From assembly GCA_964424775.1 (NCBI GenBank), contig CAYRJZ010000002.1, positions 73,736-137,735 of the forward strand: DNA of 64,000 bases, written 5' to 3'. This stretch comes from an uncultured Gammaproteobacteria bacterium (GTDB lineage: Bacteria > Patescibacteriota > Microgenomatia > Levybacterales > UBA12049). Every line of letters begins with the position of its first letter. Position 1 is the first letter of the stretch. Of this stretch, positions 1 through 41,224 are shown in pieces. The notes below the pieces were generated by a model, which worked only from the letters and a program-made list of their open reading frames with translations, was not told the origin of the DNA and did no database searches. Made by a program: the position numbers and the translations under genes.

Positions 1-1
1 A

Positions 2-1057
2 GAACCTGAAACATTTAAGAATTATATTCTAACAAAACAAATTACAATTATTCCTATTTATTATCCATTTAAAAAATTCAATTATTTTTCACATCGAACA
101 GAAGTTAAATATATTACAGAACAATTTGCAAAGTATTTTAAAAAACATAAAATATATAAAAATGATTATTTTTATTCATGTTCTGATTTTGCACCAGATG
201 TCTTACCTATTATTAAGCTTAAAAAACAATATAAATTTAAATGGATAGCTTCGCTTTTTCTTTTTATACCATCCCCCTTAGAAAATTTAATCAAAGGATA
301 TAAATTCCCATTTTTGAAATATATAGTTTATTTTTTCTACCAAAGATATCTATTTATTCCAATGCTGAAATATGCAGATTTGTTTTTAATAACAAATGAT
401 TATGATCGTAAAATGTTTAAGAATTTTCCTCAGAATAAAATTTTAGCAATTTATGGTGGTGTAAATACTGAGCATATTAAAAAACAAGTTAAGAGAAAAA
501 TAAAATATGACGCTGTTTTTTGCAGCCGGCTTCACCCACAAAAAGGAATTGCTCAGTTACTTGAAATATGGGTACAGATAATTCTAAAAAGACCTAAAGC
601 ACAACTTGCAATTCTTGGGAATGGAGAACCATCTTTTGAAAATTATTTAAAGCAAAGAGCAAGAGAGCTGGGTATAGAAAAGAATATAAAATGGTTTGGT
701 TTTGTAGATCATGAGGAAAAGTATAAAATCTATAGTCAGAGTAAAGTATTACTTCATTCAACTATTTACGATAATAATGGTATGGTAGCTGCGGAAGCGT
801 TATGTACTGGGCTTCCAGTAGTACTTTATGATCATGATTCATTAAAAACTCTTTATACAACAGGATGTGTCAAAATACCCATAGGAAATAAAAAAGAGTT
901 TTCGACCCTTGTAATCAAATTACTATCTGATAAAACATATTATAATACTGTTACTCCGATAGAAAGAGAAGTAAGATCTCTTCATAGCCAATGGAAATGG
1001 AAAAATAGAGCAAAAATATTCCGGCAATTTCTTGATAAGTATCAACAAAAAAGTTAA
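2..1057 (+). CDS. Glycosyltransferase, GT1/GT4-like; 5'-partial because the ORF runs in frame to the window edge
   Basis: The frame containing the 314 ATG stays open back to nt 2 with no stop. The C-terminal domain has the typical GT-B segment (KGIAQLLEIW..., NGMVAAEALCTGLPVV) of retaining GT4 enzymes. Confidence 0.55.
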   Translation, partial: EPETFKNYILTKQITIIPIYYPFKKFNYFSHRTEVKYITEQFAKYFKKHKIYKNDYFYSCSDFAPDVLPIIKLKKQYKFKWIASLFLFIPSPLENLIKGYKFPFLKYIVYFFYQRYLFIPMLKYADLFLITNDYDRKMFKNFPQNKILAIYGGVNTEHIKKQVKRKIKYDAVFCSRLHPQKGIAQLLEIWVQIILKRPKAQLAILGNGEPSFENYLKQRARELGIEKNIKWFGFVDHEEKYKIYSQSKVLLHSTIYDNNGMVAAEALCTGLPVVLYDHDSLKTLYTTGCVKIPIGNKKEFSTLVIKLLSDKTYYNTVTPIEREVRSLHSQWKWKNRAKIFRQFLDKYQQKS

Positions 1058-1103
1058 GACATTGAAAGAATGATTTTCATATGTTAGTGTACAGTTATCT
1101 GAG

Positions 1104-1685
1104 ATGAAAACACGCAAAGGCAAAATAAACAAAAATATCGATTTAATTTTATCTGAAATTGAGTCAGTTCTTGCCCAGGTTGACCAAGAGCAAGTTGATC
1201 TCTTTGTTAAAGAAATTAAAAAAGCAAAGACTATAGTTTTATGTGGCGCAGGTAGAGTAGGTATGGCAACGAGAGGTTTTGCAATGAGACTGGGTCATAT
1301 GGGTTTTCGCTCATTTATGATCGGGGATGCCACTGTTCCATCGATTAAAAGAGGTGATTTGCTTATTGCATCTTCTGGATCAGGTGAGACTCAGACGATA
1401 TATGATTTAGTTGCGCTTGCGAAGAAAAATGGATCAAGAGTGGCATTAGTATCAAGTTATGTCGATCATAATAAATCGCGAATGGCTCGACTTGCTGATA
1501 CTATGGTAATACTAAATGCACCATCTAAAGTAAAACATATAGATGGATTTTATTCGCAGCAACCAATGACTACGCTCAATGAGCAATGTCTCGGGATTTT
1601 TTATGATGCTGTAGTTCTGCAATTAATGGAAGAATTAAAAGAATCTCATGAAAATATGTGGTCAAGGCATTCAAATCTTGAATAA
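1104..1685 (+). CDS. Single-SIS-domain sugar-phosphate isomerase, 6-phospho-3-hexuloisomerase (PHI/HxlB)-like
   Basis: About 190 aa. LCGAGRVGMATRGFAMRLGHMGF...IGDATVPSI...DLLIASSGSGETQT closely matches the PHI/SIS signature (GAGRSG...FAMRLMHLG...DLLIAISGSGET). Confidence 0.6.
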   Translation: MKTRKGKINKNIDLILSEIESVLAQVDQEQVDLFVKEIKKAKTIVLCGAGRVGMATRGFAMRLGHMGFRSFMIGDATVPSIKRGDLLIASSGSGETQTIYDLVALAKKNGSRVALVSSYVDHNKSRMARLADTMVILNAPSKVKHIDGFYSQQPMTTLNEQCLGIFYDAVVLQLMEELKESHENMWSRHSNLE

Positions 1686-1687
1686 AT

Positions 1688-2380
1688 ATGGTAAAAAGAA
1701 AGAATACGTTTAAACTTGCTGCTTCACTAATTTGTGGTAATTATTTATCACTTCAGGAGGATATCAGCTCGCTTATTCGAGGTAAGATCGATTATATTCA
1801 TTTTGATGTAATGGATGGAGTATTTGTACCAAGATACGGACTATTCCCAGAAATAATAACTCAAATGAGACAACAAACAGCAATTCCTATTGATATGCAT
1901 ATGATGGTATCAAATCCAGAAGCTTATATTAAGACATTTGTTGACGCTGGGGCCAATCAGAAAGATGATATTTATGTAGTACACGCTGAATCTACTGTGC
2001 ACTTGGATAGGATAATACGACGTATTCATGATCATGGGATAAAAGCAGGAGTCGCACTTAATCCTGCAACTCCTTTAGAGATTTTAAAGTATGTTTTAAA
2101 TGATATAGATCTTATCATGCTAATGGCAATTAACCCAGGTATAGTTGGTCATAAATTAATTCCTCATATGTTAAATAAAATTAAAGATGTGAAGCAAATG
2201 GTAGGGAATAGGGATATTCTTATTGAAGTAGATGGTGGAGTTAATTTTGAAAGTGCACCCCAGATGATAAAAAATGGTGCAAATATGTTAGTCTGTGGTA
2301 CTCAGACAATTTATAGACCTCACGAAGCTCCAATTGACAAGAAAATAAAAGAACTCAGGAAATTGCTAGATGCATCTTAG
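1688..2380 (+). CDS. Ribulose-phosphate 3-epimerase family protein (Rpe/AlsE-like TIM barrel)
   Basis: IHFDVMDGVFVP (the RPE H-x-D-x-MDG-x-FVP metal site), DMHMMV, GVALNPATPLE, IMLMAINPG and ILIEVDGGVN are all present. Confidence 0.7.
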   Translation: MVKRKNTFKLAASLICGNYLSLQEDISSLIRGKIDYIHFDVMDGVFVPRYGLFPEIITQMRQQTAIPIDMHMMVSNPEAYIKTFVDAGANQKDDIYVVHAESTVHLDRIIRRIHDHGIKAGVALNPATPLEILKYVLNDIDLIMLMAINPGIVGHKLIPHMLNKIKDVKQMVGNRDILIEVDGGVNFESAPQMIKNGANMLVCGTQTIYRPHEAPIDKKIKELRKLLDAS

Positions 2381-3084
2381 TGTAGTCTGCTGAAGGCATT
2401 ATCAAGAGATGTTAGGTTCCCTGTATCTACCCATTCTTTAAATACAACACTTTTGAATTTATACCCCTCTTTTATCATTTCTGAAATTGCTACACAATCA
2501 TTGAGCGAGGTATCCGAAGGATTATTACGATAGGATTTATTCAAGTACTCCCAAAACGCCTTATAATCTTTAACTCCGACAAGTCCAATATGTAAGTAAT
2601 TCCAATTATTTGAACCTTTTCCGTTAAGTTCAATAACATCTTCACCATTTGTCATTACTGAACTGTAACTTTGTGTGTTGAAAATTGACTGATCATTGCC
2701 TTCTGAAACCCCGTCCCAATTATACTCTTCAGGAGAAGGGATGCTCCCATTAATAATAGTATCGTTACAGTGGAATATGAATGGACACTGAAGGAAATCT
2801 TGTGCTTGAAGCATCGAGTATCCAAGAGATGATCCTAGACCTTCATATTTATCAATTTCGACAAAAGTTATATCACGTTCAGGATACATTTGTGATATAT
2901 ATTCCCGTACCTTATCTCCATAATAACCAATTGTAATAACTAGCTCTATCTCAGATGAATAAGAAGTAATTATATAATCGATAACTTTTTTTCCGTTTAT
3001 TTCGATGAGAGCTTTATTAGTATCCTTGGTCAATTCTTTAAGTCTTGATCCAGTACCTGATGTTGTTATGAGTACTTTGTACAT
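2377..3084 (-). CDS. Sugar/alcohol-phosphate nucleotidyltransferase (LicC-like GT-A fold NT), paralog of the N-domain of 3167..4756
   Basis: N-terminal ITTSGTGSRL (G-x-G-[ST]-R-L NTP-transferase motif). It shares long conserved blocks with the next gene: FVEIDKYEGLGSSLGYSML and LHIGLVGVKDYKAFW. Confidence 0.55.
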   Translation of the reverse strand: MYKVLITTSGTGSRLKELTKDTNKALIEINGKKVIDYIITSYSSEIELVITIGYYGDKVREYISQMYPERDITFVEIDKYEGLGSSLGYSMLQAQDFLQCPFIFHCNDTIINGSIPSPEEYNWDGVSEGNDQSIFNTQSYSSVMTNGEDVIELNGKGSNNWNYLHIGLVGVKDYKAFWEYLNKSYRNNPSDTSLNDCVAISEMIKEGYKFKSVVFKEWVDTGNLTSLDNAFSRLH

Positions 3085-3166
3085 TTTATAAATTTCCCTT
3101 GTAATGCTCTACTAATTATTATATAGTAAGATAAAATAGAGAACAAACGTTATATTCTCAATCTAA

Positions 3167-4756
3167 ATGAAAAATACCTCTAATTTAGTATTAATAACTG
3201 CCTCAGGGTCAAGTACCGGGCTTGGAGAGTTAACTAAGTATACAAATAAAACACTTATTCGAGTAGGTGATAAGCCAACTATTTCTCACATTATTGAAAG
3301 TTATCCTAAATCAGCACATTTTGTTATTACGTTAGGCTATTACGCCAAACAAGTTAAAGACTTCTTAACTTTAGCATATCCAAAACACCTTTTTACCTTT
3401 GTTGAGGTAGATAAGTATGAAGGGAAAGGAAGTAGTATGGGATATAGCATGTTGAAAGCATCTAAACATTTACAGCAGCCTTTTATATTTCATGCGTCTG
3501 ACACAATTGTCCACGATCAAATCCCTAAAGTTATAAGTAATTGGATTGGAGGCTATCGTGGTGAAGGGTCATCAAATTATACGTCTTTTAATATTCTCAA
3601 TAATAAAATTCAGAAGATTTTAGAGAAGGGAATAATCAATCCTGATTTTCTACATATAGGATTAGTTGGTGTTTATGATTATAAAAAGTTCTGGAAAACA
3701 CTTAATGATCTTTATGAAAAAAATACCTATGGAGATGCTTTGTCTGACTTTCATGCACTCAATCATATGATTGAAGATGGGGTTGATTTTAAAGTAAAAG
3801 AGATAACTCGGTGGTGGGATGTCGGAAATATTGATTCACTTAAAAAAACACGACAAGATTTTAAAAACCCCTTTAATGTTCTCGATAAACCAAGGGAATC
3901 GATTTTTATATTTAACGACTCAGTTATTAAGTTTTTTCATGATGAGTCAATGGTAAGGCAAAGAGTAAAGAGAGCAGAAAATCTTAAAGGATTAGTTCCA
4001 AAAATTAAAAAGTCATTAGGAAATTTTTATATCTATAACTATATTGATGGAGACTTATATGCAGATGTTGCAACTCCAGCTAACTTTTCAGACTTCCTGT
4101 TATGGTCTAAAAAAAATCTATGGAAGAGAGTACATGAGACATCTGTGAATAAATTTAAAAATATCTGCTATGACTTTTATTTTACAAAAACACAGGAAAG
4201 AATAGCAGAATTTCTCCTTACCCGTAATATGAAAGATACTGAGATCATAATAAATGACGAAAAGGTACCTTCATTCAAAGATATGTTAAAACAAATCGAT
4301 TTTGATTGGCTCTCAACGACTGATCAATCTCGATTTCACGGAGATTATATTCTCGACAATATTATAAAGACGAAAAAAGGGTATGTATTAGTTGACTGGA
4401 GACAAAATTTTGGTGGACTAACTCATGCTGGAGATATGTATTATGATCTTGCAAAACTAAATCATAACCTAACAATAAATCACGGTATAGTGAGTAAAGA
4501 ACTATTTACAATAAATGTTGGGACGCATAACGTCTATGTTGATATACATAGAAAAGAAACTTTAGTAGAATGTCAAAAGGTATTGTTTAAGTTTCTTGAT
4601 GAGAATAAATTGGATAAAAAAAAAGTTAAAATGTTAACTGCAATTGCATGGTTGAACATGTCACCTCTTCATGAACATCCATATGATACTTTCTTATATT
4701 ATTTTGGAAAGTTACAGTTATGGAGAGCAATAAAAGAAGTAAGCGATGAAAATTAA
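3167..4756 (+). CDS. Bifunctional protein: N-terminal nucleotidyltransferase (LicC-like) fused to a C-terminal aminoglycoside/choline-kinase-fold kinase
   Basis: The N-domain (ITASGSSTGLG, FVEVDKYEGKGSSMGYSML) is paralogous to 2377..3084. The C-domain carries the Brenner catalytic loop (FHGDYILDNII) and VLVDWRQNFGG, the Mg-binding D of the APH/ChoK fold. Confidence 0.55.
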   Translation: MKNTSNLVLITASGSSTGLGELTKYTNKTLIRVGDKPTISHIIESYPKSAHFVITLGYYAKQVKDFLTLAYPKHLFTFVEVDKYEGKGSSMGYSMLKASKHLQQPFIFHASDTIVHDQIPKVISNWIGGYRGEGSSNYTSFNILNNKIQKILEKGIINPDFLHIGLVGVYDYKKFWKTLNDLYEKNTYGDALSDFHALNHMIEDGVDFKVKEITRWWDVGNIDSLKKTRQDFKNPFNVLDKPRESIFIFNDSVIKFFHDESMVRQRVKRAENLKGLVPKIKKSLGNFYIYNYIDGDLYADVATPANFSDFLLWSKKNLWKRVHETSVNKFKNICYDFYFTKTQERIAEFLLTRNMKDTEIIINDEKVPSFKDMLKQIDFDWLSTTDQSRFHGDYILDNIIKTKKGYVLVDWRQNFGGLTHAGDMYYDLAKLNHNLTINHGIVSKELFTINVGTHNVYVDIHRKETLVECQKVLFKFLDENKLDKKKVKMLTAIAWLNMSPLHEHPYDTFLYYFGKLQLWRAIKEVSDEN

Positions 4757-5270
4757 GAATTTTATAATAGACGTTGATGGCGTTTTTACTGATGGGACTT
4801 TTTATTACACGGAACAAGGAAAGATAATGAAGAAGTTTGGACCGGAAGACGCAGATGCTCTTTCATTATTAAAGAATAAGATGAATATTCATGTTGTATC
4901 TGGAGATAAAAGAGGTTTTGCAATTACAAAAAAACGAATTCAAGATGATATGAAATTAAAATTAGATCTTGTAAGTACATTCGAAAGAATAGAATGGCTC
5001 TCTCAGTTATATGATCCAAAAGAGTCTATATACATGGGAGATGGAATTTTTGATCCTCTTGTTTTTAAAAAAGTAGCCTACAGTATTGCTCCTGCAAATG
5101 CATTCTACACGACAAAGAAAGAAGCTGATTATGTGACAAATGCAAAAGGAGGGGAAGGTGCAGTTGCAGAGGCTGTACTCCACATACTAGATAACATTCT
5201 AAAAGAACCTTTTGATGTTCACTCTCTTACATTTGCACACGGCTCTGGAGCATGGAGTAAATCAAAATGA
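4746..5270 (+). CDS. HAD-superfamily sugar-phosphate phosphatase, KdsC (Kdo-8-P phosphatase) family
   Basis: IIDVDGVFTDG matches the KdsC N-terminal DxDGVxTDG motif. About 170 aa with YMGDGIFD (second HAD Asp motif). Confidence 0.65.
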   Translation: MKIKNFIIDVDGVFTDGTFYYTEQGKIMKKFGPEDADALSLLKNKMNIHVVSGDKRGFAITKKRIQDDMKLKLDLVSTFERIEWLSQLYDPKESIYMGDGIFDPLVFKKVAYSIAPANAFYTTKKEADYVTNAKGGEGAVAEAVLHILDNILKEPFDVHSLTFAHGSGAWSKSK

Positions 5271-6403
5271 AAATTAATTATATAGATCGAAATCATAACG
5301 TAATAACACAAGAAAATACTCTCGAAAAACTATATGTATTTAATAATTTTCCAATTTATATTGGATGTACAGATAAACCTCAGAGTGAGGATGTTACGGC
5401 AGATCTTTCATTGGCAATCTGTCAAAAAACAGGAGTAATGCAATTAGATAAAGTACTTCCACTTGAAGTTGTATATGGAGACTATCATTCTGAAGCACTT
5501 GGCCCACTTTGGAATGAACATCACTTAAGTTTTGTTGAGTTCCTTATTAAATATAATTCAAAAAATATACTTGAAATAGGTGGGTCTAATGGTTTTATTG
5601 CTAAGGAATCTGTGAAGAAAAATAAAAATATTAATAAATGGATTATGGTAGAACCTGCTCCTGCATATGGAGGAGATTCTAAGATTGAGGTAATTGAAAA
5701 AAGTTTTGACGAGAATTTTATTTATGATGGAAAAGTTGATTGTATAGTTCATTCACATACATTCGAACATATTTATGAGCCTGGATTATTTATGAATAGT
5801 ATAGGTAGATATATGAAAATAGGTGATTTTCAAATATTTTCAGTTCCAAATTTATATAAATATTTACTAAATAAGCAAGCGAACTGGATAAATTTTGAAC
5901 ACACAGTTTTTTTAACTGAATATTACATTGATTTTCTACTTAACAAAAATGGTTTAGAAATATTAGAAAAAAAATATTTCTATGAACACAGTATTTTCTA
6001 CGCAACCAAAAAAATTAGAAATGAAGATAAATCAGTTACCATAACAAATAAGTATAAAGAAAATAAGAAGCTCTTTAATGACTACATTAACTTCTATAAA
6101 CATGAAGTAGCTAAGTATAATGATCAGATCAAAAAATTCTCTGGCAAAATTTATCTTTTCGGAGCACATATATTCTCTCAGTTTCTTGTTCTTAACGGAT
6201 TGACTGGGAATATCATTGGTGTTCTTGATAACTCCAAAATTAAAAAAGGTAAAAGACTCTATGGCACATCACTTACTGTTTTTGCTCCAGATGTGATTAA
6301 AGACGAAAAAGACGTGATGGTTATTCTTAAAGCAGGAGCTTATCAGAAAGAAGTGAAGGATCAACTATTATCATTAAATCCACGTGTAATTATTCTTGAG
6401 TAA
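5267..6403 (+). CDS. Class I SAM-dependent methyltransferase with extra N- and C-terminal domains
   Basis: ILEIGGSNGFIAKE (motif I, GxGxG), then an acidic beta-strand (IMVEP) and DCIVHSHTFEHI. Confidence 0.45.
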   Translation: MKINYIDRNHNVITQENTLEKLYVFNNFPIYIGCTDKPQSEDVTADLSLAICQKTGVMQLDKVLPLEVVYGDYHSEALGPLWNEHHLSFVEFLIKYNSKNILEIGGSNGFIAKESVKKNKNINKWIMVEPAPAYGGDSKIEVIEKSFDENFIYDGKVDCIVHSHTFEHIYEPGLFMNSIGRYMKIGDFQIFSVPNLYKYLLNKQANWINFEHTVFLTEYYIDFLLNKNGLEILEKKYFYEHSIFYATKKIRNEDKSVTITNKYKENKKLFNDYINFYKHEVAKYNDQIKKFSGKIYLFGAHIFSQFLVLNGLTGNIIGVLDNSKIKKGKRLYGTSLTVFAPDVIKDEKDVMVILKAGAYQKEVKDQLLSLNPRVIILE

Positions 6404-7667
6404 TATGAGAATAATTTTTCACAATCCTCATTCGAGTCTTGTCATAGGAAAAACACTTCTTGACTTCATATTAAGGATACACAGTTATAAAAAGTATTCT
6501 TATTTATTAGATTATATTCGACAAAGCAGAAATGATTTTGCTTTTTATATAGATAATCATGATTCATCACTTCCGTCTATTGCTGCAAGAATAATTCCGG
6601 CAAAGGTTGAGGTGTATCTGTGGATGATAGTAAATAAAATAAACCCACTTAAAGTAAAACTAGTTTGGAATATTGATGAACTGAAGAAAGATGATATCTT
6701 TTTTTCTTTCTCTTTGAAAAACCTCGATACAAATTACAGTGGAACTGATAATATTTTTAATAAAAAGTTTTTAAAAATATTTCATATAACTCACTTTGTT
6801 CAAAACACCTCACTCATCGCTGAAAATGCAAAAAGACTACAAATTAATTTTTTTGTAGCTGAAAATAACTTATCTAAAAACTCAAAATATTTTAAAAAAT
6901 ATTTATCTTTTTATAAGAAAGATGTTTACACCCTACCTTTTGTTGCACAGAAAAGATTTAAAAAGATAAATAATTTTAATAATAGGATTAACAAATGTCT
7001 GGCTACCGGAACTGTTGTAAATATTACTAAAACAGGCAATCCAAGTGATTTTAAGGACTTTCGAAAGTTCTATAAGACAGACGTACTCCAACCAATTCGA
7101 AATGAGATACTTCAAAAAAAAGATGAACTAAAAGACATTATCGACTGCTCAATTGGAGAACTATATGAAAAAGAATTAAAAAGGACGTCATCTAAGAATT
7201 TATTGCAAAAACTTTTTGCTAAATTGTATAACGCGCTTTTTGCCACAAAGAGATCTTATTTTAAATTTGATATTGTTGAGAGATATAATTCATATAAAAT
7301 GTTTATAAATGGTGAAGAGATAAATGATTTGCCGGGGATAGGTTTTGTTGAGGGAATGGCATGTGGAGCTGCTTATATTGGACAGATAAGTGATATGTAC
7401 ACAGACCTTGGACTAGTACCTGGTGTCCATTATATTGGATATAATGGAACTCTGAATGATTTGAAAAGAAAAATAAGATATTATCAAACACATTCAAAAA
7501 AGCTCGAAAAAATCGCTGAAGCTGGACATGCATTTGTTATCAATAATTTTACAGAAAAAAGCGTAGCTAGGAAATTTTTCTCTGATCTTAAGGATCTTTC
7601 TGAACAGTATAAAAAAAAGAAATACAAGACTGATCAATTAGAATTTAAGTGTTCATTTGTAAAGTAA
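6396..7667 (+). CDS. Hypothetical protein, possible degenerate GT-B glycosyltransferase
   Basis: C-terminal GIGFVEGMACGAAYIG resembles the GT1/GT4 EX7E-region (EGFGLxxLEAMACGxPVI). The N-terminal half is very K/N-rich and unassignable. Confidence 0.3.
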   Translation: MSNMRIIFHNPHSSLVIGKTLLDFILRIHSYKKYSYLLDYIRQSRNDFAFYIDNHDSSLPSIAARIIPAKVEVYLWMIVNKINPLKVKLVWNIDELKKDDIFFSFSLKNLDTNYSGTDNIFNKKFLKIFHITHFVQNTSLIAENAKRLQINFFVAENNLSKNSKYFKKYLSFYKKDVYTLPFVAQKRFKKINNFNNRINKCLATGTVVNITKTGNPSDFKDFRKFYKTDVLQPIRNEILQKKDELKDIIDCSIGELYEKELKRTSSKNLLQKLFAKLYNALFATKRSYFKFDIVERYNSYKMFINGEEINDLPGIGFVEGMACGAAYIGQISDMYTDLGLVPGVHYIGYNGTLNDLKRKIRYYQTHSKKLEKIAEAGHAFVINNFTEKSVARKFFSDLKDLSEQYKKKKYKTDQLEFKCSFVK

Positions 7668-8245
7668 TGATAAAAAATATTCTTTCATTAATTTCATATT
7701 ATCAAAGTAAAAAAGGCTTTTCTTCTTTTGGTAAAAAATCACTTATCAAATTCCCGTATAAAATATGGGGTAGAGATCGTATTTCTATTGGAGAAAATGT
7801 ATTTATTGCAGAAAATTCATATTTTGCTGTCTCCAAAAAATTTAAAAATCAAAAATTTTCTCCCACTATATCCATTGGAAATAATACATGCATTGGTAGT
7901 AATTTTTTTCTTGCATCTATAGATGAAATTGTTATTGAAGATGATGTATTAATATCAGATCGAGTTTTCATATCTGATCATATCCATAATTATGAAGATA
8001 TTAAAACTCCCATTATCGAACAACCATTAAAGAAAAAAGGGAAAGTATTAATAAAAAAGGGAAGCTTTATTGGAGTGAATGCTGTTATTATGCCTGGGGT
8101 AACTATTGGGAAAAATAGTGTTATTGGTGCATCAAGTGTTGTTATTAAAGATGTTCCTGACTTCGCTGTTGCTACTGGTAATCCAGCAAGAATTATTAAG
8201 AAATATTCCCAAAAATCAAAAACGTGGGTAAAAGAAAAGAAATAA
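7667..8245 (+). CDS. Hexapeptide-repeat (LbH) sugar O-acetyltransferase
   Basis: Tandem hexapeptide repeats (ISIGENVFIAENSYF...ISIGNNTCIGSNFF...IGVNAVIMPGVTIGKNSVIGASSVV) and a maltose/galactoside acetyltransferase-like C-terminus. The start was moved from the GTG at 7649 to the ATG at 7667, which overlaps the upstream stop (TAATG). Confidence 0.6.
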   Translation: MIKNILSLISYYQSKKGFSSFGKKSLIKFPYKIWGRDRISIGENVFIAENSYFAVSKKFKNQKFSPTISIGNNTCIGSNFFLASIDEIVIEDDVLISDRVFISDHIHNYEDIKTPIIEQPLKKKGKVLIKKGSFIGVNAVIMPGVTIGKNSVIGASSVVIKDVPDFAVATGNPARIIKKYSQKSKTWVKEKK

Positions 8246-8246
8246 A

Positions 8247-8966
8247 ATGTTGAATTATACTCCTTATATATTAAAAGAAATTAAAAAAATTAATAAAAAA
8301 GATCAAAGTGTACTAGATGTTGGGTGTGGTATTGGACAGTATTTCCCATACTTAAAAGGGAAAATAACAGGTTTTGATTTTGATAAAAAAAATGTTGAGA
8401 GAGCGAAAAAAAAGTTTCCTGAAGCTAAAGTATTTCATTTTGATTTAACAAAAAGACCACTACCTGGTTTGAAAAAATATGATGTCGTAATTTGTCTTGA
8501 GGTCGTCGAACATATGAAGAAAAGAGATGCTCTCTTATTAATAAAAGAATTAGAGAAAAAGACAAATGGTTACCTTCTTATCTCTACACCCAATATAAAT
8601 AACTTTACATCTCTTCTCCGTTTTCTTATGACGCGAAAGGTGGAAATAGCAGGTGAGGCAAACGTAGTTGAAAAAATTTTATACTTTATTTTAAATAGAA
8701 AATTTCCACCAAAAAATAATAAATATTACGTCATGGAATCTGATAGTCCTGATCTCATCTCCAATAAAAGCCTTCATTATCATGTGTCAAATTTCAGTTC
8801 AGGAGATTTCAAAAAAATGGGTTATAGAGTAGTAGGAGGACTTGGGCAAGTTAACTACGACATTATCGGAAATCAAATGCTAAAAAATTTTATTGAAAAG
8901 ATATTTTATTATTTCCCATATTTGGCTGGTTCATTTTTAGCAATTAAAGAAATTCGCACGAAATAG
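8247..8966 (+). CDS. Class I SAM-dependent methyltransferase
   Basis: VLDVGCGIGQY (motif I), DVVICLEVVEHM (motif II/III region). Confidence 0.6.
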   Translation: MLNYTPYILKEIKKINKKDQSVLDVGCGIGQYFPYLKGKITGFDFDKKNVERAKKKFPEAKVFHFDLTKRPLPGLKKYDVVICLEVVEHMKKRDALLLIKELEKKTNGYLLISTPNINNFTSLLRFLMTRKVEIAGEANVVEKILYFILNRKFPPKNNKYYVMESDSPDLISNKSLHYHVSNFSSGDFKKMGYRVVGGLGQVNYDIIGNQMLKNFIEKIFYYFPYLAGSFLAIKEIRTK

Positions 8967-9010: not shown

Positions 9011-11131
9011 ATGGTAAATAGAAAGAAAAATGAAATTATTTCCTTAGTACTATTGCTCATAGTAGGTATCATTGTTTATCATAGATGGCTGAATATATCT
9101 GCATTTGCTTTTGGAGATTGGGGATTTGGATTTAGAGAAGTTTATTCAGAGATAATATTTCCATATACAGGTGGTGTTTTTGGTCCAAATATTCTTCTTT
9201 GGAAATATCCATTTTTCTTAATAAATGGGTTAGTAAGTCTTTTAGGTTTTAACTCAAATGTTATTGAGAAAGTTATTGTTTTCTGGCCAATTATTCTACT
9301 TACACCAATTAGTGGGTTTCTAATAGTTAAAAAAATTACTCGTTCAAATACAGCTGGGGTAATAGGATCACTTATTTTCTCGTATAACACTTATTTTCTC
9401 TCAATTAGTACTCAAGGCCATCTTCTTTTACCACTTGCATATGCATGGGGTGCATTTGCATGTATAACTTTTATTAATTTGTTAGAAAATAAAAAACTTA
9501 TTTGGCTACCAATAACTGCACTGCTTCTTTTTGTTGTTGGAGCTACAGACTTGAGAAGTCTCTACGTCATTTCAATGATTCTCTGTCTTTATGCACTTTA
9601 CCATCAACTCTTTATTGAAAGAAAAATTAAGGAAAATTTCTTTAAAAATATTTTAAGGTGTTTTTCTGTCTTTTTTATCTTATTTTTGTTAAATATTTTT
9701 TGGATTCTACCTGCAATTACTATTCAAAATTTAACATCTGGTGCTGTTTTTTATAGTGAATTGTTTGGCGGTGAATTTTATAACATTCAAAATGCTATCT
9801 CATTCTTCTATCCTTTTTGGACTGGCAAAGAAACAGCATGGTTGCAGCTCCAAGAAATACCATTGTCATTTTGGTTGTTCCCATTGGTAGCGTTCTCAGG
9901 GCTCTTAGTAGGAAGACGAAATAAAAAAATTGTCTTCTTTGGTCTTATTGCACTTTTTGGCATTTTCTTATCCAAACAAGAATCCCAGCCATTCCCACAG
10001 GTTTATCCATGGCTTTTCCAACATATTCCAGGTTTTGCTGCATTTCGTGAGGCAAGCAAATTTAACTTTTTAATCGTGTTAGGTTATGCAGTTCTTTTTG
10101 CAAGTTTTTCACTCTTTATTAAAAACTATTTTAAGGAGAAAAAATACTTAGCGAGTATAATTATTTTCTTTTTGGCATTGTTGCCTCTTTGGAATACTAT
10201 ACCTTTTATAACAGGAGAAATAAAATCTCTTTATATTCCAAAGACAGTCCCTGAAGATTTTATAAAACTTAGTAATTATTTTAAGAAAGAGAATAACTTT
10301 CAAAGAGTATTTGCCATTAATAATAATATTTACTGGTTATATTCAACTTCAAATCATCCAGTCACCGATGCGGTTGGATCTGTGAGAAATTATTGGGCTG
10401 AAACAAAAATGTATGATGTTGAGTCAGATATGACTGAGGGAAAACGCATTACCCTTTTCCTTACATCAGATTCAGGACGACGATTACTTTCAAATGCGTC
10501 AGTTGGACATCTTGTTGTAAACATAAAAGATGTAGAAACAAACAGTAATGTTAGACGAGATTTTGGAGAAAATAGAGAATTTTTCGAAAAGTCATTTGAT
10601 AAAGTAAATTTTTTGGAAAAGAAAGATATCGGACTTAAAAATACTCTTCTTTATGAAAATAAACAGGTACGACCACTTATCTACTTAACTCAAGAAAAAG
10701 AGAGTTTGAAGAAAGATATTCCATTTGAACGTGTTCAATTTACAACAATTAATCCAACTGAACACCGTATCTCAATTATGAATTTAAGAAACCCTATGTA
10801 TCTCAATTTTGCTGGACTTTATCATCCAGACTGGAAGTTAAGAGTAGGCAGCTTTCATTGGAAAGATGCAGTAGGAAACAAATCATATTTCATTGAGAGT
10901 AAATTTCATCAAAAAAATGAAGTTCTTCAAAATACTTTTTTACTTGACCCAGAGTATTTAAAAAAGAATGATGATGCTGACATAACTGTAAATGAAGACG
11001 GATCAATAAATATGATATTCACGCTCTTTTTTAGACCACAAGCTTATTTATATCTGGGACTCCTTATAAGCACGACTGTATTTGTCTTATCGTTATTCTC
11101 AATCGTTATTCTATTTAAATGGAAAAAATAA
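9011..11131 (+). CDS. Polytopic membrane protein with a large C-terminal extracytoplasmic domain, GT-C-like (YfhO/ArnT/PMT-type)
   Basis: About 12 predicted TM helices over the first roughly 400 aa, a roughly 250 aa soluble domain, then a C-terminal TM. This architecture is typical of GT-C glycosyltransferases that use polyprenyl-phosphate sugars. Confidence 0.4.
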   Translation: MVNRKKNEIISLVLLLIVGIIVYHRWLNISAFAFGDWGFGFREVYSEIIFPYTGGVFGPNILLWKYPFFLINGLVSLLGFNSNVIEKVIVFWPIILLTPISGFLIVKKITRSNTAGVIGSLIFSYNTYFLSISTQGHLLLPLAYAWGAFACITFINLLENKKLIWLPITALLLFVVGATDLRSLYVISMILCLYALYHQLFIERKIKENFFKNILRCFSVFFILFLLNIFWILPAITIQNLTSGAVFYSELFGGEFYNIQNAISFFYPFWTGKETAWLQLQEIPLSFWLFPLVAFSGLLVGRRNKKIVFFGLIALFGIFLSKQESQPFPQVYPWLFQHIPGFAAFREASKFNFLIVLGYAVLFASFSLFIKNYFKEKKYLASIIIFFLALLPLWNTIPFITGEIKSLYIPKTVPEDFIKLSNYFKKENNFQRVFAINNNIYWLYSTSNHPVTDAVGSVRNYWAETKMYDVESDMTEGKRITLFLTSDSGRRLLSNASVGHLVVNIKDVETNSNVRRDFGENREFFEKSFDKVNFLEKKDIGLKNTLLYENKQVRPLIYLTQEKESLKKDIPFERVQFTTINPTEHRISIMNLRNPMYLNFAGLYHPDWKLRVGSFHWKDAVGNKSYFIESKFHQKNEVLQNTFLLDPEYLKKNDDADITVNEDGSINMIFTLFFRPQAYLYLGLLISTTVFVLSLFSIVILFKWKK

Positions 11132-12009
11132 GAAATATTATTTTTATTCTCACAGTGTTGGGTATGATTATCGTACTAACAATTATCACTTTGCTTCAAA
11201 GTGATAATTTGACTGGGTTTTCAATTTTTTATCCAAATGACGTGATAATTACATACCCAAGGGGTGAACTCTATAAGGATCAATCAATAAAACTCGATCT
11301 CAATGTAAATGAGAACTATCTTGGACAGGTAGCAGTACGATTTTATAATTATGATCGAATAAACGAGGACTCCGTACTCTTTAGAATTAGGGAAAAAGGC
11401 TCGAAGTCATGGTATTACGAGCATATCTATAAAACTGACCAGTTCCAGCCACATCACTTATTTCCATTTGGATTTCCGGTCATTCATAATTCAAGGGATA
11501 AGCAGTATCAAATTGAGATAATTTCCCAGAGCGGGAAGCCTGATGATGCAGTTACTTTAAGCTCCCATCAGCCTAAAGTCACAAGTGCACATCAATATCC
11601 CAAACAAGAGCTGTTATCAAATCCATCATTACTGATAGAATTTGTCGTAAATAAGGTAAAGTATAGTCATGTCAGTCTTGATACCTTTATTTCATTTGGG
11701 AAATATGTCCACATAATTACGTTATCTACGGTATTTCTTTATCTTTTCATTAATAGTGTAATAGTCAAGTTTTCTCAATTTCGACAGAATTTAAGTACTG
11801 TGATGCTCATTAGTGGACTTGTGTTGCTGATGAGCGGCGCTCTTCTCCACTATGTCCACCTATTTTCGGTTTCATCGATACTTATTATCACCTCTTATTT
11901 CCTTTTTCTTATGAGTACAGTACTATTTCTTATAGAGAATAAGAAAAATGAAGGCGAGAAGAGGCCATCAATGCGTGAGAAAGTTGTTCGTAAAAGGAAA
12001 AAAGTATGA
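11119..12009 (+). CDS. Hypothetical membrane protein (N-terminal signal anchor, soluble domain, C-terminal TM bundle)
   Basis: Hydrophobicity pattern only. Confidence 0.35.
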   Translation: MEKIRNIIFILTVLGMIIVLTIITLLQSDNLTGFSIFYPNDVIITYPRGELYKDQSIKLDLNVNENYLGQVAVRFYNYDRINEDSVLFRIREKGSKSWYYEHIYKTDQFQPHHLFPFGFPVIHNSRDKQYQIEIISQSGKPDDAVTLSSHQPKVTSAHQYPKQELLSNPSLLIEFVVNKVKYSHVSLDTFISFGKYVHIITLSTVFLYLFINSVIVKFSQFRQNLSTVMLISGLVLLMSGALLHYVHLFSVSSILIITSYFLFLMSTVLFLIENKKNEGEKRPSMREKVVRKRKKV

Positions 12010-13589
12010 GAATTCTTTCAAAAAGACAGAATCTTTTTTTAGTTATAGTTTTACTTCTGATTATTGTAACTCTTTCACTGCTTCTTCGAATTCATTCCTT
12101 TAGTGGTGGTAATTTTTATTTTCTTTTAGACCAGGCAAGAGATATGACTCTTGTTAAAGAGATAGTAGAAAATAGAGATATCACTCTTATTGGTGCCAGG
12201 TCAGGAATAGGGGGAATATTTCATGGCCCACTCTGGCTTTATTTACTTGTTCCAACGTTTGTTTTGAGTGGAGGAAATCCTTATTTTACTCTTGTTCCCA
12301 TTTTTATTCTTTTAACAGTGATTCTAGTTTTGTCCGGATTTTATATTGGATGGAAATTATATGGAGCAAAATATGGACTACTTATAGCTCTTTTCCTTGG
12401 AATTTCCTCTTCTTTTATTGAAAGTATGGCTAATTTTTCTAATGCCCATGTTATGCCACTGATTTTTCTCTTCTTTCTTTACACACTCATACGCTATCTC
12501 AGAGGATATGAAAAAGCTCTCATTGGTAGTGCGTTCTTGATTGGTATTGGTATTCATTTCGAAGCTGCCTTTGCAATTTTTTTAATACCGATTACACTTC
12601 TTACTTTTGTATGGAAGAGAAAATTTCCTCAAATGAAGACCTTATTTAAAAGCACAGTCGTATTTTTCATTACTGTAATAAATTATGTTCTTTTTGAGTT
12701 GAAAAATGGCTTTATTATGACTCGTGCAGCTCTGAATTTAATACTTGGTCATTCAGGTCCAATGGAAGGGTATGAGCAGTATTCAGATGTGTTTTTCAGA
12801 ATAAATGATAGGGTAAGTGTCTTTGTTAATTCTTTTTTTACGCCTTTATTCACACAAACTCAATTAAGTAAAGTGTTGCTGATAATTATTATTATTTCTT
12901 CTTTTGTTTTTACTCTTATACATTTGAAGAAAAAGAAAAGAGAAAAAGATAATTCAGAGTTTTTGTTTCTTCTCCTCATACCTCTAATTATTTCAGCGTT
13001 ATTAGTGATATATCCACATCCTATTTGGCCTCATTATATCCTTCCTTTAGTAATTTCATCAGTGTTTCTATTAGTTTTAGGAATGAAAATCATATCTAAG
13101 CATAAGTTGGGTCATTATTATTCTTGGTTCGCACTTTTAATATTCCTTATCCCAACACTTGGATGGATAGACAATACATATATAAAAGGATACTCTGTGC
13201 CATTATCAAATGGGGCTACATTTCAAAAACAATTAGAAGTTGTAGACTGGGTATTGAATGACGCGGGAAATGAGAAGTTTGGGTATCTTGCTTATACACC
13301 TCAAGTTTTGACATATAACATGGATTATTTAATGTGGTGGAGAAGTAGAGATAAAGGTGTATCACATTATGTCAATAACAAAGAAAGAATTACCTATCTT
13401 CTTCTTCTTCCTCCAAAAGAAGGAGACCTCAAAGCTCATGATTTCTGGAAGAAAAATGTGATACGGACTAATGGGAAAGTGATTGAACGAAAAGTATTTA
13501 GCACAGGTCTTATGGTTGAAAAACTCGAAATTTCCAAGCAAGAACCTCCTGTTGAGTCAACATATTTCCACGGTGCACTCTTCCGATAA
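12006..13589 (+). CDS. GT-C family membrane glycosyltransferase (ArnT/PMT-like)
   Basis: N-terminal TM, then the first-loop acidic motif (LLDQARDM) before a run of about 12 TM helices. The C-terminal soluble domain and layout match the ArnT/PMT_2 family. Confidence 0.45.
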   Translation: MRILSKRQNLFLVIVLLLIIVTLSLLLRIHSFSGGNFYFLLDQARDMTLVKEIVENRDITLIGARSGIGGIFHGPLWLYLLVPTFVLSGGNPYFTLVPIFILLTVILVLSGFYIGWKLYGAKYGLLIALFLGISSSFIESMANFSNAHVMPLIFLFFLYTLIRYLRGYEKALIGSAFLIGIGIHFEAAFAIFLIPITLLTFVWKRKFPQMKTLFKSTVVFFITVINYVLFELKNGFIMTRAALNLILGHSGPMEGYEQYSDVFFRINDRVSVFVNSFFTPLFTQTQLSKVLLIIIIISSFVFTLIHLKKKKREKDNSEFLFLLLIPLIISALLVIYPHPIWPHYILPLVISSVFLLVLGMKIISKHKLGHYYSWFALLIFLIPTLGWIDNTYIKGYSVPLSNGATFQKQLEVVDWVLNDAGNEKFGYLAYTPQVLTYNMDYLMWWRSRDKGVSHYVNNKERITYLLLLPPKEGDLKAHDFWKKNVIRTNGKVIERKVFSTGLMVEKLEISKQEPPVESTYFHGALFR

Positions 13590-13636
13590 GTTTCTTTCTT
13601 TGTATACGCTCAGCTGTTTTTGTTACAATAGATCTT

Positions 13637-14563
13637 ATGATATCAATTGTAGTTCCTGTTTTTAACGAAGAAGACGCATTGAAGCCTTTTTATACTGAAT
13701 TAAAAAGAGTATTAAAAGAGCATAAGTACACATACGAAATTATCTTTATTGAAGATGGTTCAACTGATCTGTCGTTAGATATCCTTAAGTCTTTTGAATC
13801 TGATGATAAATCAGTGAAGGTATTTTCTTTTCGCCGAAATTTGGGGAAAGCTGATGCTTTAACATTAGGATTTCAAAAAGCACAAGGAGATGTTGTTATT
13901 ACAATGGATGCAGATCTTCAAGATCAGCCGAGCGAAATACCACTTTTTCTTACCAAACAAAAAGAAGGCATTGAAGTCGTATGTGGATGGAGAAAGAACA
14001 GAAAAGATAAGTCTCGAATGAAGTTCATCTCAAAATTATTCAATGGTGTCGTTCACAAAGCATTTGATATTCCAGTTCACGATTATAATTGTGGCTTTAA
14101 ACTGTATACACATGAAGCTGCAAAAAGCCTACGCCTCTATGGAGGGCAACATCGTTTTATTCCTGTTCTTGCTGCTGAACAAGGGTTTGTCGTTGATGAA
14201 GTCGAAGTAAAACATGAACCTCGAAAGTTCGGATACTCAAAATATGGGTTCTCAAAAATATTTAAAGATCTTCCTGATATGTTCTCAATACTTTTTCTTG
14301 TAAAGTATCGAAAACGACCACTTCATTTTTTTGGAGCTATGGGGGGTGCGATGACTCTTGTTGGTACATTTCTTTTTATCTATCTGACGATACTTCGACT
14401 GACGGGTGAAAGAATTGGGGATAGGCCTCTGTTGATCTTTTCAGTACTTCTCATACTCGCTGGACTGCAGGTTTTCTTTACAGGATTCTTGGCTGAACTT
14501 TTAACGAACGTCACTCAACGTGACAAGATGAACTTTCCTATCAAATATCAGTCTAAAAATTAA
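13637..14563 (+). CDS. GT2 polyprenyl-phosphate glycosyltransferase (ArnC/GtrB/CsbB/DPM1-like)
   Basis: ISIVVPVFNEE, FIEDGSTD, VITMDADLQDQP (DxD), and a C-terminal two-TM anchor. This is the typical lipid-phosphate sugar synthase that partners GT-C enzymes. Confidence 0.75.
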   Translation: MISIVVPVFNEEDALKPFYTELKRVLKEHKYTYEIIFIEDGSTDLSLDILKSFESDDKSVKVFSFRRNLGKADALTLGFQKAQGDVVITMDADLQDQPSEIPLFLTKQKEGIEVVCGWRKNRKDKSRMKFISKLFNGVVHKAFDIPVHDYNCGFKLYTHEAAKSLRLYGGQHRFIPVLAAEQGFVVDEVEVKHEPRKFGYSKYGFSKIFKDLPDMFSILFLVKYRKRPLHFFGAMGGAMTLVGTFLFIYLTILRLTGERIGDRPLLIFSVLLILAGLQVFFTGFLAELLTNVTQRDKMNFPIKYQSKN

Positions 14564-14565
14564 AC

Positions 14566-15099
14566 ATGAGAATTGGTATTGATATTTCCCAACTTGCATA
14601 TAGTAATACTGGTGTTGCTAATCTTCTTAAAAATCTCGTGAACACACTTACAGAAGAAGGGAAAAACCATGAGTTTATACTGTTCTATTCTTCTCTTAGA
14701 AGACCTTTTAATAATGAGTGGATAATAAGCCGTCCTAATGTTTCCATAAAGCAATTCAAACTTCCTCCTTCTCTTTTAGATCTATTATGGAATAGGCTTC
14801 ATATTCTTCCAGTTGAGTATTTTATTGGAGAAGTTGATTTGTTTATATCATCGGATTGGACTGAGCCACCAACTAAAAATGCTCAAAAAGTTACTATTCT
14901 TTACGACCTTGTTGTACTGAAGTACCCTCAGGAAAGTACAGAAAAAATTGTGGATACTCAAAAGAGAAAATTGCACTGGGTGCAAAAAGAGACAGAGAAG
15001 ATACTCTGCATTTCTGAATCTACCCTACATGATGCAAGAGAACTCCTCCATATCCAACCCGATAAATTATCTGTTGTTTACCCCGGATTAACTGCTTAG
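14566..15099 (+). pseudogene. Truncated GT4 glycosyltransferase, N-terminal domain only (177 aa); likely remnant of a paralog
   Basis: MRIGIDISQLAYSNTGVANLL aligns with the N-termini of the full-length GT4s at 15139 and 22577 (M.FGIDA...GV, MKVGIDARFWNETGVGRY). It ends before any GT-B C-domain. Confidence 0.4.
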
Positions 15100-15138
15100 T
15101 TTATTTCTTGAGCGGGATAAATAGACTATACTAAAAAT

Positions 15139-16269: not shown

Positions 16270-16274
16270 TACAT

Positions 16275-16829
16275 ATGATTCCGAGAGTAAAAAGAAGAAT
16301 TACAACCGTTGTGTCTGAATATATTGTTTTTTGGCTTCATATTATTGGAACTGTTCCTTCACATACAATAAGGCGTTTTTTCTATCGTCTATCCGGAATT
16401 GAGATTGGAAGAGGATCTACTATTCATATGGGAGCTCGTTTCTATCAACCGGCAAATATCTCAATTGGTAAAGATACCATTGTCGGAGAAGGAGTTGTCT
16501 TAGATGGGAGAGCCAAACTTATTATTGGTAATCATGTAGCAGTAGCATCTGACGTTATGATCTATAACGCTGAACATGATATCCACAGCACAACATTTCA
16601 TGCGATCACGGGAGATGTCTTTATACATGACTATGTCTTTATTGGCCCTCGGGCAATAATTTTACCAGGTGTAACGATTGGAAAAGGCGCTGTCGTTGCC
16701 GCAGGAGCTGTTGTGACGAAAGATGTTAAGCAATACTCAATAGTTGGTGGTGTGCCAGCAAAAGAAATTGGAGAACGAAAAGAAAGAGATCTCACTTATA
16801 GATTGGGGAGATCTGCCTGGTTCAGATAA
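16275..16829 (+). CDS. Hexapeptide-repeat (LbH) acetyltransferase
   Basis: ISIGKDTIVGEGVVLDG...IGNHVAVASDVMIYN...FIGPRAIILPGVTIGKGAVVAAGAVV. Confidence 0.65.
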   Translation: MIPRVKRRITTVVSEYIVFWLHIIGTVPSHTIRRFFYRLSGIEIGRGSTIHMGARFYQPANISIGKDTIVGEGVVLDGRAKLIIGNHVAVASDVMIYNAEHDIHSTTFHAITGDVFIHDYVFIGPRAIILPGVTIGKGAVVAAGAVVTKDVKQYSIVGGVPAKEIGERKERDLTYRLGRSAWFR

Positions 16830-16830
16830 T

Positions 16831-21352: not shown

Positions 21353-21353
21353 C

Positions 21354-22553: not shown

Positions 22554-22576
22554 CTGATTTCACGTATAATAGTCAC

Positions 22577-24740: not shown

Positions 24741-24764
24741 TATAGATATAATACTTATTAACTC

Positions 24765-35143: not shown

Positions 35144-35148
35144 AAAGA

Positions 35149-35481: not shown

Positions 35482-35522
35482 AGAGGTATTTTACAAGTCA
35501 AAAGAATCAATGTAAAGAAGAG

Positions 35523-35855: not shown

Positions 35856-35886
35856 GGATATAGTATAGCTTAGAATAGGTACCTGT

Positions 35887-36480: not shown

Positions 36481-36499
36481 CTAGGTATACTACACACGT

Positions 36500-39093: not shown

Positions 39094-39134
39094 GATAATT
39101 TGTGAAAACTCGAGTTTGACGGTATAATGCATCA

Positions 39135-40466: not shown

Positions 40467-40467
40467 T

Positions 40468-41223: not shown

Positions 41224-41224
41224 T

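Follow-up and report, generated by a model that had tools for sequence, protein, structure and literature searches.

The first 8966 nucleotides of a 64-kb stretch of DNA (the window; contig CAYRJZ010000002.1 of assembly GCA_964424775.1, positions 73,736 to 137,735), from an uncultured bacterium placed among the Patescibacteriota, raise the question of what is made by a block of genes that encodes a sugar-phosphate isomerase, an epimerase, two nucleotidyltransferases (NTs), a kinase and a phosphatase, together with methyltransferases and an acetyltransferase. The open reading frames (ORFs) of this block were searched with Pfam and NCBIfam profiles. The answer that we favor, with moderate confidence, is a de novo nucleotide-sugar pathway arranged around a bifunctional enzyme resembling AfhE of phages, the product being a methylated rare sugar for the cell surface.

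An initial annotation, made from the sequence alone, had placed most of these genes correctly. Profile searches upheld its coordinates and its fold or family calls for the SIS isomerase, the RPE-family protein, the NTs, the fusion protein, the HAD phosphatase, the methyltransferases and the acetyltransferase; every gene it named is present, but it passed over a GT90-like gene inside the block. Its proposal of a pathway devoted to sugar activation, supplying a locus for surface glycan, is likewise supported.

The nucleotidyltransferase/kinase fusion and its phage homologues

At the center of the block is a 529-residue fusion protein (3167..4756, + strand), with an N-terminal NT domain (3167..3871) and a C-terminal domain (3872..4756) that matches the Pfam family APH weakly (21.5 bits, under the cut-off). 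A Foldseek search with the full-length model (predicted local distance difference test score, pLDDT, 86.5) gave LicC (1jyk) as the top match, with a TM score of 0.81 on the target, followed by UGPases, RmlA and MurU; in sequence, the similarity of the NT domain to LicC is marginal (E = 8.6e-4). All of these matches were to the NT domain, and the kinase domain was therefore modelled separately, using AlphaFold on the C-terminal 294 residues (pLDDT 89.9). With this model Foldseek returned, at a probability of 1.0, ethanolamine and choline kinases, APH(2''), glucosamine kinase, maltokinase and FN3K, at TM scores of about 0.45–0.52. A profile of the C-terminal domain found no kinase among PDB sequences, the best match being spurious (E = 0.16). 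An alignment of 20 members of the fusion family identified K255, H391-G-D393-x4-N398 and D410-W-R412 as invariant; HGDxxxxN and D-W-R are the Brenner and metal-binding motifs of the APH fold. The prediction of an APH/choline-kinase fold for this domain stands. The initial annotation had named the lack of such a fold as a possible refutation of its proposal, and model, Foldseek matches and motifs all confirm that the fold is there.

When the fusion was compared with phage genomes by tblastn, it matched a 543-residue protein of Denvervirus, a genus of Enterococcus phages. The fusion family aligns with the NT-kinase of one of these, Enterococcus phage Planchet, over its full length (hhalign 98.9%, E = 1.4e-17, 462 columns). 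The Planchet protein matches gp52 of phage RB69 by BLASTP (E = 1e-16), and the profile of the fusion family also reaches RB69 gp52 (hhalign E = 3.4e-5, 72%, 176 columns). Motifs common to the window's fusion family and RB69 gp52 are HGD..N, D-[WP]-R-x-x-[FY]-G, YD-AK and PLH. The gene order in RB69 is SIS (gp55), NT/kinase (gp53:52) and HAD (gp51), as in the window. Judged by these alignments and motifs, the fusion is homologous to the AfhE-type phage enzymes (RB69 gp52:53).

The passages on the Afh enzymes in PMC13326640 describe AfhE of HY126 as a D-arabinose-5-phosphate anomeric kinase that is also a UDP-D-arabinose pyrophosphorylase, and AfhF as a Mg-dependent HAD phosphatase that converts arabinofuranose-1,5-bisphosphate to arabinofuranose-1-phosphate. 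Arabinofuranose-5-phosphate is supplied by a SIS arabinose-5-phosphate isomerase, and the pathway ends in UDP-D-arabinofuranose; the equivalents in RB69 are given there as gp55, gp52:53 and gp51. The pathway serves to make arabinosyl-5-hydroxycytosine DNA, and gp81-83 of DLP3 are also listed (the same passages of PMC13326640; PMC6024577). Diverged prokaryotic homologues of RB69 ORF53_52c were noted earlier (PMC6024577). The cellular cassette is not described in the accessible literature that we searched.

The window and the phage pathway are alike in having one homologous protein (compared through the Planchet and RB69 proteins) in which a LicC/MurU-like NT at the N terminus is joined to an APH-like kinase at the C terminus, in the order isomerase, NT/kinase, HAD, and in the use of a kinase and a phosphatase in place of a mutase. 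They differ in that the window adds an RPE-family epimerase, methyltransferases, an acetyltransferase and a GT90-like transferase. Its isomerase is of the PHI type and its phosphatase KdsC-like, whereas the phages have a KdsD-type isomerase and a small AfhF/PNKP-like HAD. The setting also differs: the window holds a cellular Wzx/Wzy-type surface-glycan locus, whereas the phage genes form a module for DNA modification that has a cytosine hydroxylase as its neighbor. Among the ORFs scanned, those at 1–22.5 kb of the window, there is no ThyA-like gene (cytosine 5-hydroxylase), and the neighbors include GT2, GT4, Wzy_C-like and PMT_2 genes. We consider that the product of the window is probably not plain arabinofuranose. 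The phage Afh pathway is thus a described close relative of which the initial annotation was unaware, and it is distinct from LicABC.

The Denvervirus loci (L078:6654-11430 in Planchet and L079:5622-10401 in phage 9183) carry a gene for a 114-residue HAD followed by that for the 543-residue NT-kinase, which is annotated as 'Glycosyltransferase' or 'NDP-sugar pyrophosphorylase-like'. Nearby are a thymidylate-synthase/pyrimidine-hydroxymethylase-like gene, two or three glycosyltransferases, a dUTPase and nucleotide kinases, a gene set that has the look of a module for the glycosylation of DNA bases that is as yet undescribed.

The block encodes a second, standalone NT of the LicC/RmlA fold on the opposite strand (2377..3084, −; PF00483 and TIGR03992-like matches), which is a paralogue of the fused NT domain (187 bits). 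In RmlA/GlmU-type enzymes an arginine of the P-loop contacts the phosphates of the nucleoside triphosphate. The P-loop typical of the fusion family is GxGSRLG; the fused domain of the window has GSSTGLG(E), with glycine for arginine, whereas the standalone NT has SGTGSRL(KE) and keeps it. In those fusions across the loci compared that have lost the arginine, it is replaced by K, G, D, H or P; every standalone NT keeps it. In non-duplicate flanked loci a standalone NT lies near six of the eight fusions that lack the arginine and eight of the 31 that have it (p = 0.016, phylogeny ignored), which suggests subfunctionalization after duplication. The initial annotation had one or both NTs activating the sugar. 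Because the fused domain has lost the P-loop arginine and the standalone NT retains it, the standalone NT is the likelier working pyrophosphorylase in this genome.

Conservation of the cassette and displacement of its parts

The SIS protein (1104..1685, +) scores above the HxlB threshold (TIGR03127, 181.9 bits against a cut-off of 160), and its nearest solved structures are YckF, AF1796 and MJ1247, which are the result of a comparison with the PDB. It is not of the KdsD type (23 bits against a cut-off of 505 for the KdsD model; BLASTP to RB69 gp55, E = 0.11). Its role would be the isomerization of a ketose phosphate to an aldose phosphate, or a 2,3-keto isomerization.

The gene that follows (1688..2380, +) encodes a (beta/alpha)8 barrel of the RPE family (PF00834, 205 bits) belonging to a distinct subfamily. 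It scores 208.1 bits with the rpe equivalog model TIGR01163, against a cut-off of 212.6, and passes the subfamily model NF004076. We tried to decide between pentose and hexose substrates by similarity, but the protein is equidistant from E. coli Rpe (35% identity) and AlsE (34%). In an alignment of 50 cassette RPEs with these two references, the metal and catalytic His/Asp motifs are kept in the cassette proteins. They also conserve FVPR in place of the VPN found in both references, PGIVGHK in place of their PGF(G/A)GQ, and, at strand 1, ASLiC. These motifs and identities argue for a substrate other than those of Rpe and AlsE.

The phosphatase (4746..5270, +) is a capless HAD of subfamily IIIA, resembling KdsC (TIGR01670, 79.6 bits, cut-off 106.95). 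It reaches 70.9 bits with the KDN-9-P phosphatase model and 68.7 with KdsC proper (cut-off 208). Its best solved relatives are AQ2171 and KdsC, and the motifs DVDG and GDGIFD are found in the sequence. It is not of the AfhF type (BLASTP to RB69 gp51, E = 0.13; to the Enterococcus phage HAD, E = 2.8).

We then consider how widely these genes occur together. At E ≤ 1e-5 the fusion is matched by 2229 homologues, of which the best 120 share 53–65% identity with it and are nearly all unannotated; those that carry a name come from Patescibacteria lineages. When one genome per species was scanned, 68 loci were obtained, mostly in Patescibacteria, with some in Bacteroidota and DPANN archaea; the carriers include Moranbacteria, Microgenomates, Andersenbacteria and Saccharibacteria. 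Several of the taxon labels of metagenome-assembled genomes (MAGs), such as 'uncultured Bdellovibrionales', are probably unreliable. No plasmid copies of the fusion were found by tblastn.

The informative set comprises 38 loci, free of duplicates, in which the fusion gene is flanked by 3 kb or more on either side; their stop-to-stop ORFs were searched with the window proteins using phmmer score thresholds. The HAD is present in 35 of the 38, SIS and RPE in 33 each, and all three are found jointly within 8 kb in 32. The 378-residue methyltransferase occurs in 21 loci, with a TylF-type O-methyltransferase in the same slot in others; the standalone NT occurs in 15, the GT90-like protein in 13, directly after the methyltransferase, and the acetyltransferase in three. 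The core order SIS-RPE-[NT]-NT/kinase-HAD-methyltransferase is almost always kept. In loci of the type of L001–L006 the context is a Wzx flippase, SIS, RPE, [NT], NT-kinase, small HAD, methyltransferase and a putative transferase of 376–432 residues. This grouping of the core genes is far beyond chance. The initial annotation had asked whether the genes are scattered in related genomes; they are kept together as a block. From these synteny counts across the 38 loci we take the genes for SIS and RPE to be dedicated to the module, and not to be scattered genes of central metabolism.

Some loci depart from this plan. Locus L045 (820-2091) has an NT-SIS fusion instead of a separate SIS. In two MAGs labelled as Saccharibacteria (L050:14648-19016 and L047) the NT-kinase is accompanied by a GatZ-like protein, a split transketolase, a NUDIX protein, a DegT aminotransferase and SDR enzymes, a gene content that suggests a more elaborate branched or amino sugar.

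Loci without SIS and RPE encode, instead of SIS, a cupin of 110–120 residues that is similar to D-lyxose isomerase and to the PMI domain found in GMP/PMI enzymes, and, instead of RPE, a class-II-aldolase/GatZ-KbaZ-like protein of about 335 residues. We refer to the SIS/RPE arrangement as form A and to the cupin/GatZ-like arrangement as form B. SIS/RPE and the GatZ-like gene are never found together; the cellular loci comprise 35 of form A, three of form B and none with both (Fisher p = 4e-4, phylogenetic non-independence ignored). Form B predominates in viruses: a scan of IMG/VR gave at least 104 viral contigs, some of 100–280 kb, with fusions that are 39–51% identical, and of the 80 contigs examined (L082–L161), 77 have form B and one has the SIS/RPE form. 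The viral arrangement is [small AfhF-like HAD] - PMI-like cupin - NT-kinase - class-II-aldolase/GatZ-like, as for example in L084:7273-10544, where the GatZ-like gene is at 9537-10544. A small HAD homologous to RB69 gp51 is present in many viral form-B loci, and AfhF-like small HADs occur in these loci only; the KdsC-like HAD is retained in several cellular form-B loci. Three of the four functions, those of isomerase, epimerase and phosphatase, have thus been taken over by non-orthologues while the kinase/NT at their center is conserved, and this displacement supports a scheme of epimerase, isomerase, kinase/NT and phosphatase.

Two viral loci have further genes of interest. Near the L084 cassette there are an HAD_2-NT fusion, a DUF6492 protein and two Methyltransf_24 O-methyltransferases. 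An unannotated 66-kb single-cell record, 'Marine virus AG-345-E15' (MH319741.1), has the order cupin - NT-kinase (46% identical) - GatZ-like (L081:9634-12474), with a second cupin and NT 4 kb downstream.

Proposed pathway and rival explanations

In the pathway that we propose, the RPE-family barrel would epimerize a common ketose phosphate of central metabolism, for which the candidates are ribulose-5-phosphate/xylulose-5-phosphate or fructose-6-phosphate, and the PHI-type SIS protein would isomerize the resulting ketose phosphate to a rare sugar omega-phosphate. The APH-fold kinase domain would then phosphorylate the anomeric hydroxyl to give a 1,omega-bisphosphate, from which the KdsC-like HAD would remove the terminal phosphate. 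Finally a LicC/RmlA-fold NT would join the sugar 1-phosphate to a nucleoside monophosphate, giving a nucleoside diphosphate (NDP) sugar. Kinase and phosphatase would together substitute for a phosphomutase, as they do in the heptose pathways; there is no phosphomutase in the cassette. Most sugar kinases of the APH fold are anomeric kinases, among them NahK, AmgK, Mak and MtnK. Every activity that this pathway requires is encoded in the block with its motifs intact, on profile, alignment and model evidence. We infer the order of the steps from homology to the phage system; the anomeric regiochemistry, the choice of active NT and the role of the GT90-like protein are inferred as well.

Several points weigh against this pathway. 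The step order is taken from a distant homologue: identity to the Enterococcus phage protein is about 22%, and RB69 aligns over the kinase half only. The enzymology of the Afh proteins comes originally from He et al. 2026 (Nat Chem Biol) and is known to us second-hand, through the passages in PMC13326640. The isomerase is PHI and not KdsD, and the phosphatase KdsC-like rather than a small PNKP-like HAD, so that both substrate and order could differ. Moreover, the PHI family is known for 2,3-keto and not for aldose-ketose isomerization, and the SIS step as drawn is an assumption. Finally, RPE, a 3-epimerase, and the GatZ-like protein, a 4-epimerase or aldolase, would give different sugars, yet the conserved residues of the kinase do not differ systematically between forms A and B (six form-B sequences compared), which the scheme leaves unexplained.

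Either a pentose or a hexose may be the product. The phage precedent speaks for a pentose (D-arabino-, xylo- or lyxofuranose, from ribulose-5-phosphate or xylulose-5-phosphate), and the PMI- and GatZ-like families of form B speak for a hexose, made from fructose-6-phosphate. The 'rare ketose' of the initial annotation is not favored over a rare aldose. A bolder and rather doubtful proposal is that the cassette makes an NDP-activated, O- or C-methylated rare sugar of the lyxo type that is undescribed in any organism. PHI and the RPE-like protein would here achieve a net C4 epimerization of fructose-6-phosphate to tagatose-6-phosphate, by way of 3-hexulose-6-phosphate and its C4 epimer, and in the viral form a single GatZ-type enzyme would do the same. 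Speculative candidates are D-lyxofuranose or D-xylofuranose from xylulose-5-phosphate, and D-talose or D-tagatose from tagatose-6-phosphate. If SIS plus RPE and the GatZ-like protein did carry out the same C4 step, their mutual exclusivity around an unchanged kinase would be explained.

The same set of genes could also work in the salvage order that the initial annotation proposed, in which the HAD frees a rare sugar, the kinase phosphorylates its anomeric position and the adjacent NT makes the NDP-sugar, in the manner of Fkp, AmgK/MurU or NahK/GlmU. A kinase-NT fusion would channel the product of the kinase straight to the NT, glucosamine kinase and maltokinase are among the structural neighbors of the kinase domain, and NahK, AmgK and Mak act on unphosphorylated sugars. 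The bifunctional HldE and GmhB of the heptose system indicate, however, that a fusion need not mean direct channelling, and a free rare sugar would diffuse out of a small cell. The sole characterized homologue, AfhE, is described as phosphorylating a sugar 5-phosphate, with the HAD acting later (PMC13326640, in the passages cited above). The order phosphatase before kinase is thus probably the reverse of the true one, and we regard salvage as unlikely. We see much less prospect for a LicCA-like activation, in which the kinase would phosphorylate a sugar, a polyol or a small alcohol on a primary hydroxyl, and the LicC-like NT would make a CDP-linked donor (of the CDP-choline, CDP-ribitol or CDP-6-fructose type) for a phosphodiester-linked decoration. 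LicC 1jyk is the best solved match of the NT domain, ethanolamine and choline kinases are the best matches of the kinase domain, and NT-kinase fusions of LicC and LicA type occur in Treponema. These are the nearest solved structures for both domains, and the NT-kinase order of Treponema LicCA is also alike. However, neither kinase nor phosphatase would be required for a sugar whose primary position already carries a phosphate, more than 100 loci link the cassette to epimerases and isomerases of sugar phosphates, and the homologous phage enzyme yields an anomeric NDP-sugar, according to the Afh passages (PMC13326640). Pfam searches found neither a LicB-type permease nor a LicD-type phosphotransferase in the scanned ORFs. 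Phosphocholine decoration by LicABC is accordingly rejected, since LicB and LicD are missing there and the similarity to LicC is at the level of fold only; in the cassette, moreover, linkage with the genes for sugar-phosphate isomerase, epimerase and phosphatase is obligatory.

It is also conceivable that the SIS and RPE proteins are housekeeping enzymes of the ribulose monophosphate (RuMP) or pentose-phosphate pathway that only supply ribulose-5-phosphate, in the way that a phage host does for the Afh pathway, the product being NDP-D-arabinofuranose or similar, with no dedicated epimerization. The SIS protein is above the HxlB threshold and RPE within 5 bits of the rpe equivalog threshold, the 64-kb window holds no second RPE, and the small genomes of the candidate phyla radiation (CPR) may reuse enzymes. 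Nevertheless the synteny extends across phyla that include the Bacteroidota, which have full central metabolism; the cassette RPEs are a subfamily of their own, equidistant from Rpe and AlsE, with conserved substitutions in the region of the active site; and SIS and RPE are exchanged as a pair for the cupin and the GatZ-like protein. We give this explanation little credence. The RuMP pathway itself shares with the block the family membership of its SIS and RPE genes (HxlB/PHI, Rpe, AlsE). It differs in that its partner enzyme HPS is missing from the cassette, the RPE belongs to a separate subfamily and the genes sit in a glycan cassette. It was rejected because the PHI-type protein has no accompanying HPS in the scanned ORFs; nor was HPS noticed in the Pfam tables of L001–L006.

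Other known routes to activated sugars were also compared. ADP-heptose is made by GmhA-HldE-GmhB and GDP-heptose by GmhA-HddA-GmhB-HddC. In these pathways a ketose phosphate is the substrate of a SIS isomerase, a bisphosphate is then formed by an anomeric kinase, an HAD phosphatase takes off the terminal phosphate and an NT completes the activation; in HldE, kinase and NT are fused. The likeness to the window is one of reaction logic only. The kinase of the window is of the APH fold and not of the ribokinase or GHMP fold, its NT is of the RmlA/LicC and not the cytidylyltransferase fold, and it has an additional epimerase. The NCBIfam matches listed include no model for GmhA, GmhB, HldE or HddA, and HddC matches the standalone NT weakly (23.8 bits against 300). 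A heptose pathway was rejected, there being no orthologous proteins. The pathway to 3-deoxy-D-manno-octulosonic acid (Kdo) was rejected as well: the HAD is under the KdsC cut-offs, and KdsA and KdsB are unmatched in NCBIfam. The statement of the initial annotation that no standard dTDP, UDP or CMP-Kdo route fits remains valid. We regard the cassette as a new cellular variant of a recently described type of NDP-sugar pathway.

Tailoring genes, surroundings and biological meaning

Downstream of the phosphatase gene is that of a 378-residue S-adenosylmethionine (SAM) methyltransferase (5267..6403, +), with weak matches to Methyltransf_23 (27.9 bits) and Methyltransf_14 (22.7 bits). Its match to the D-mycarose 3-C-methyltransferase 4rv9 is full-length but weak (E = 0.38). 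Its architecture appears distantly akin to that of NDP-hexose C-methyltransferases, and a tailoring role is predicted. Two phage protein families of unknown function in PHROG match its halves, phrog_37107 the N-terminal and phrog_24523 the C-terminal (176 bits), from which it follows that a split form of this methyltransferase exists in phages.

The GT90/Glyco_trans_1_2-like gene that the initial annotation omitted (6396..7667, +; PF13524 35.3 bits, PF05686 31.4 bits) encodes a putative glycosyltransferase, matching POGLUT2 (9w47) with E = 0.0022. It is a candidate for a dedicated transferase of the cassette product. In about 15 other loci the slot directly after the 378-residue methyltransferase is held by proteins of a family of 376–406 residues with a weak C-terminal Cupin_2 match (L001:13287-14417, L037:8429-9646 and homologues). 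These proteins may serve as an alternative transferase, or may modify the sugar further.

The block ends with a hexapeptide-repeat O-acetyltransferase resembling WbbJ/WcaF (7649..8245, +; Hexapep 53.6 bits, NF007240 101 bits) and a 239-residue class I SAM methyltransferase (8247..8966, +) that matches Methyltransf_23, Methyltransf_11 and Methyltransf_25. Both appear to be lineage-specific tailoring enzymes, the acetyltransferase by its occurrence noted above, and the methyltransferase having a strong homologue in L006 only (267 bits). In the proposed pathway the sugar would be methylated by the 378- and 239-residue enzymes and acetylated, and the GT90-like enzyme would move it into the surface glycan of the surrounding 25-kb locus.

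Upstream of the SIS gene is a glycosyltransferase of family GT4 (2..1057, +, listed as ORF 314-1057; PF00534, 91.6 bits), the 5' end of which is outside the window. Its reading frame 2 is open from base 2, so that this first glycosyltransferase runs off the window and the cluster extends upstream. Positions 9011-25847 hold the remainder of a large glycan locus, with several GT4 enzymes, a GT2 polyprenyl-phosphate-type transferase, a second hexapeptide acetyltransferase and polytopic membrane proteins of 706, 527, 1056 (Wzy_C-like) and 482 residues (PMT_2, GT-C-like). The 706-residue protein and the GT2 are shared with L006, in the same order. Beyond these lie a DUF4012 protein (26560-28521) and the division and cell wall (dcw) cluster (32266-52101), which comprises RsmH, a PBP transpeptidase, Mur ligases, MurA, FtsW, MurG, FtsA and FtsZ; within it, the ORF at 42445-44205 has a weak SIS match and may be GlmS-like.

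The GC content of 1-8966 is 30.6%, against 38.4% in the dcw region. The contrast that the initial annotation reported is therefore real but was overstated, and its argument for a variable island is weaker than claimed. The core genes have 31–37% GC, and only the tailoring and glycosyltransferase genes 28–29%. A strong reading as a foreign island was rejected, the core genes being close to the GC typical of the genome.

Patescibacteria of the CPR and DPANN archaea live attached to hosts, and surface glycans are likely to be central to them, although the chemistry of these glycans is almost uncharted. The cassette is among the most conserved glycan-precursor modules in these organisms. Its chemistry can largely be predicted, and its distribution is very wide, among organisms and viruses that are poorly understood. 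The link to phage DNA arabinosylation gives it a testable mechanism, and suggests that the glycan pathways of cells are connected in evolution with the DNA hypermodification modules of phages. The displacement of enzymes around one conserved kinase/NT is a natural experiment for the assignment of function, and the enzymes could serve as biocatalysts for rare NDP-sugars that do not require a mutase. If the proposal of a lyxo-type sugar were true, this sugar would be a widespread component of surface and viral glycans in CPR bacteria, DPANN archaea and large phages.

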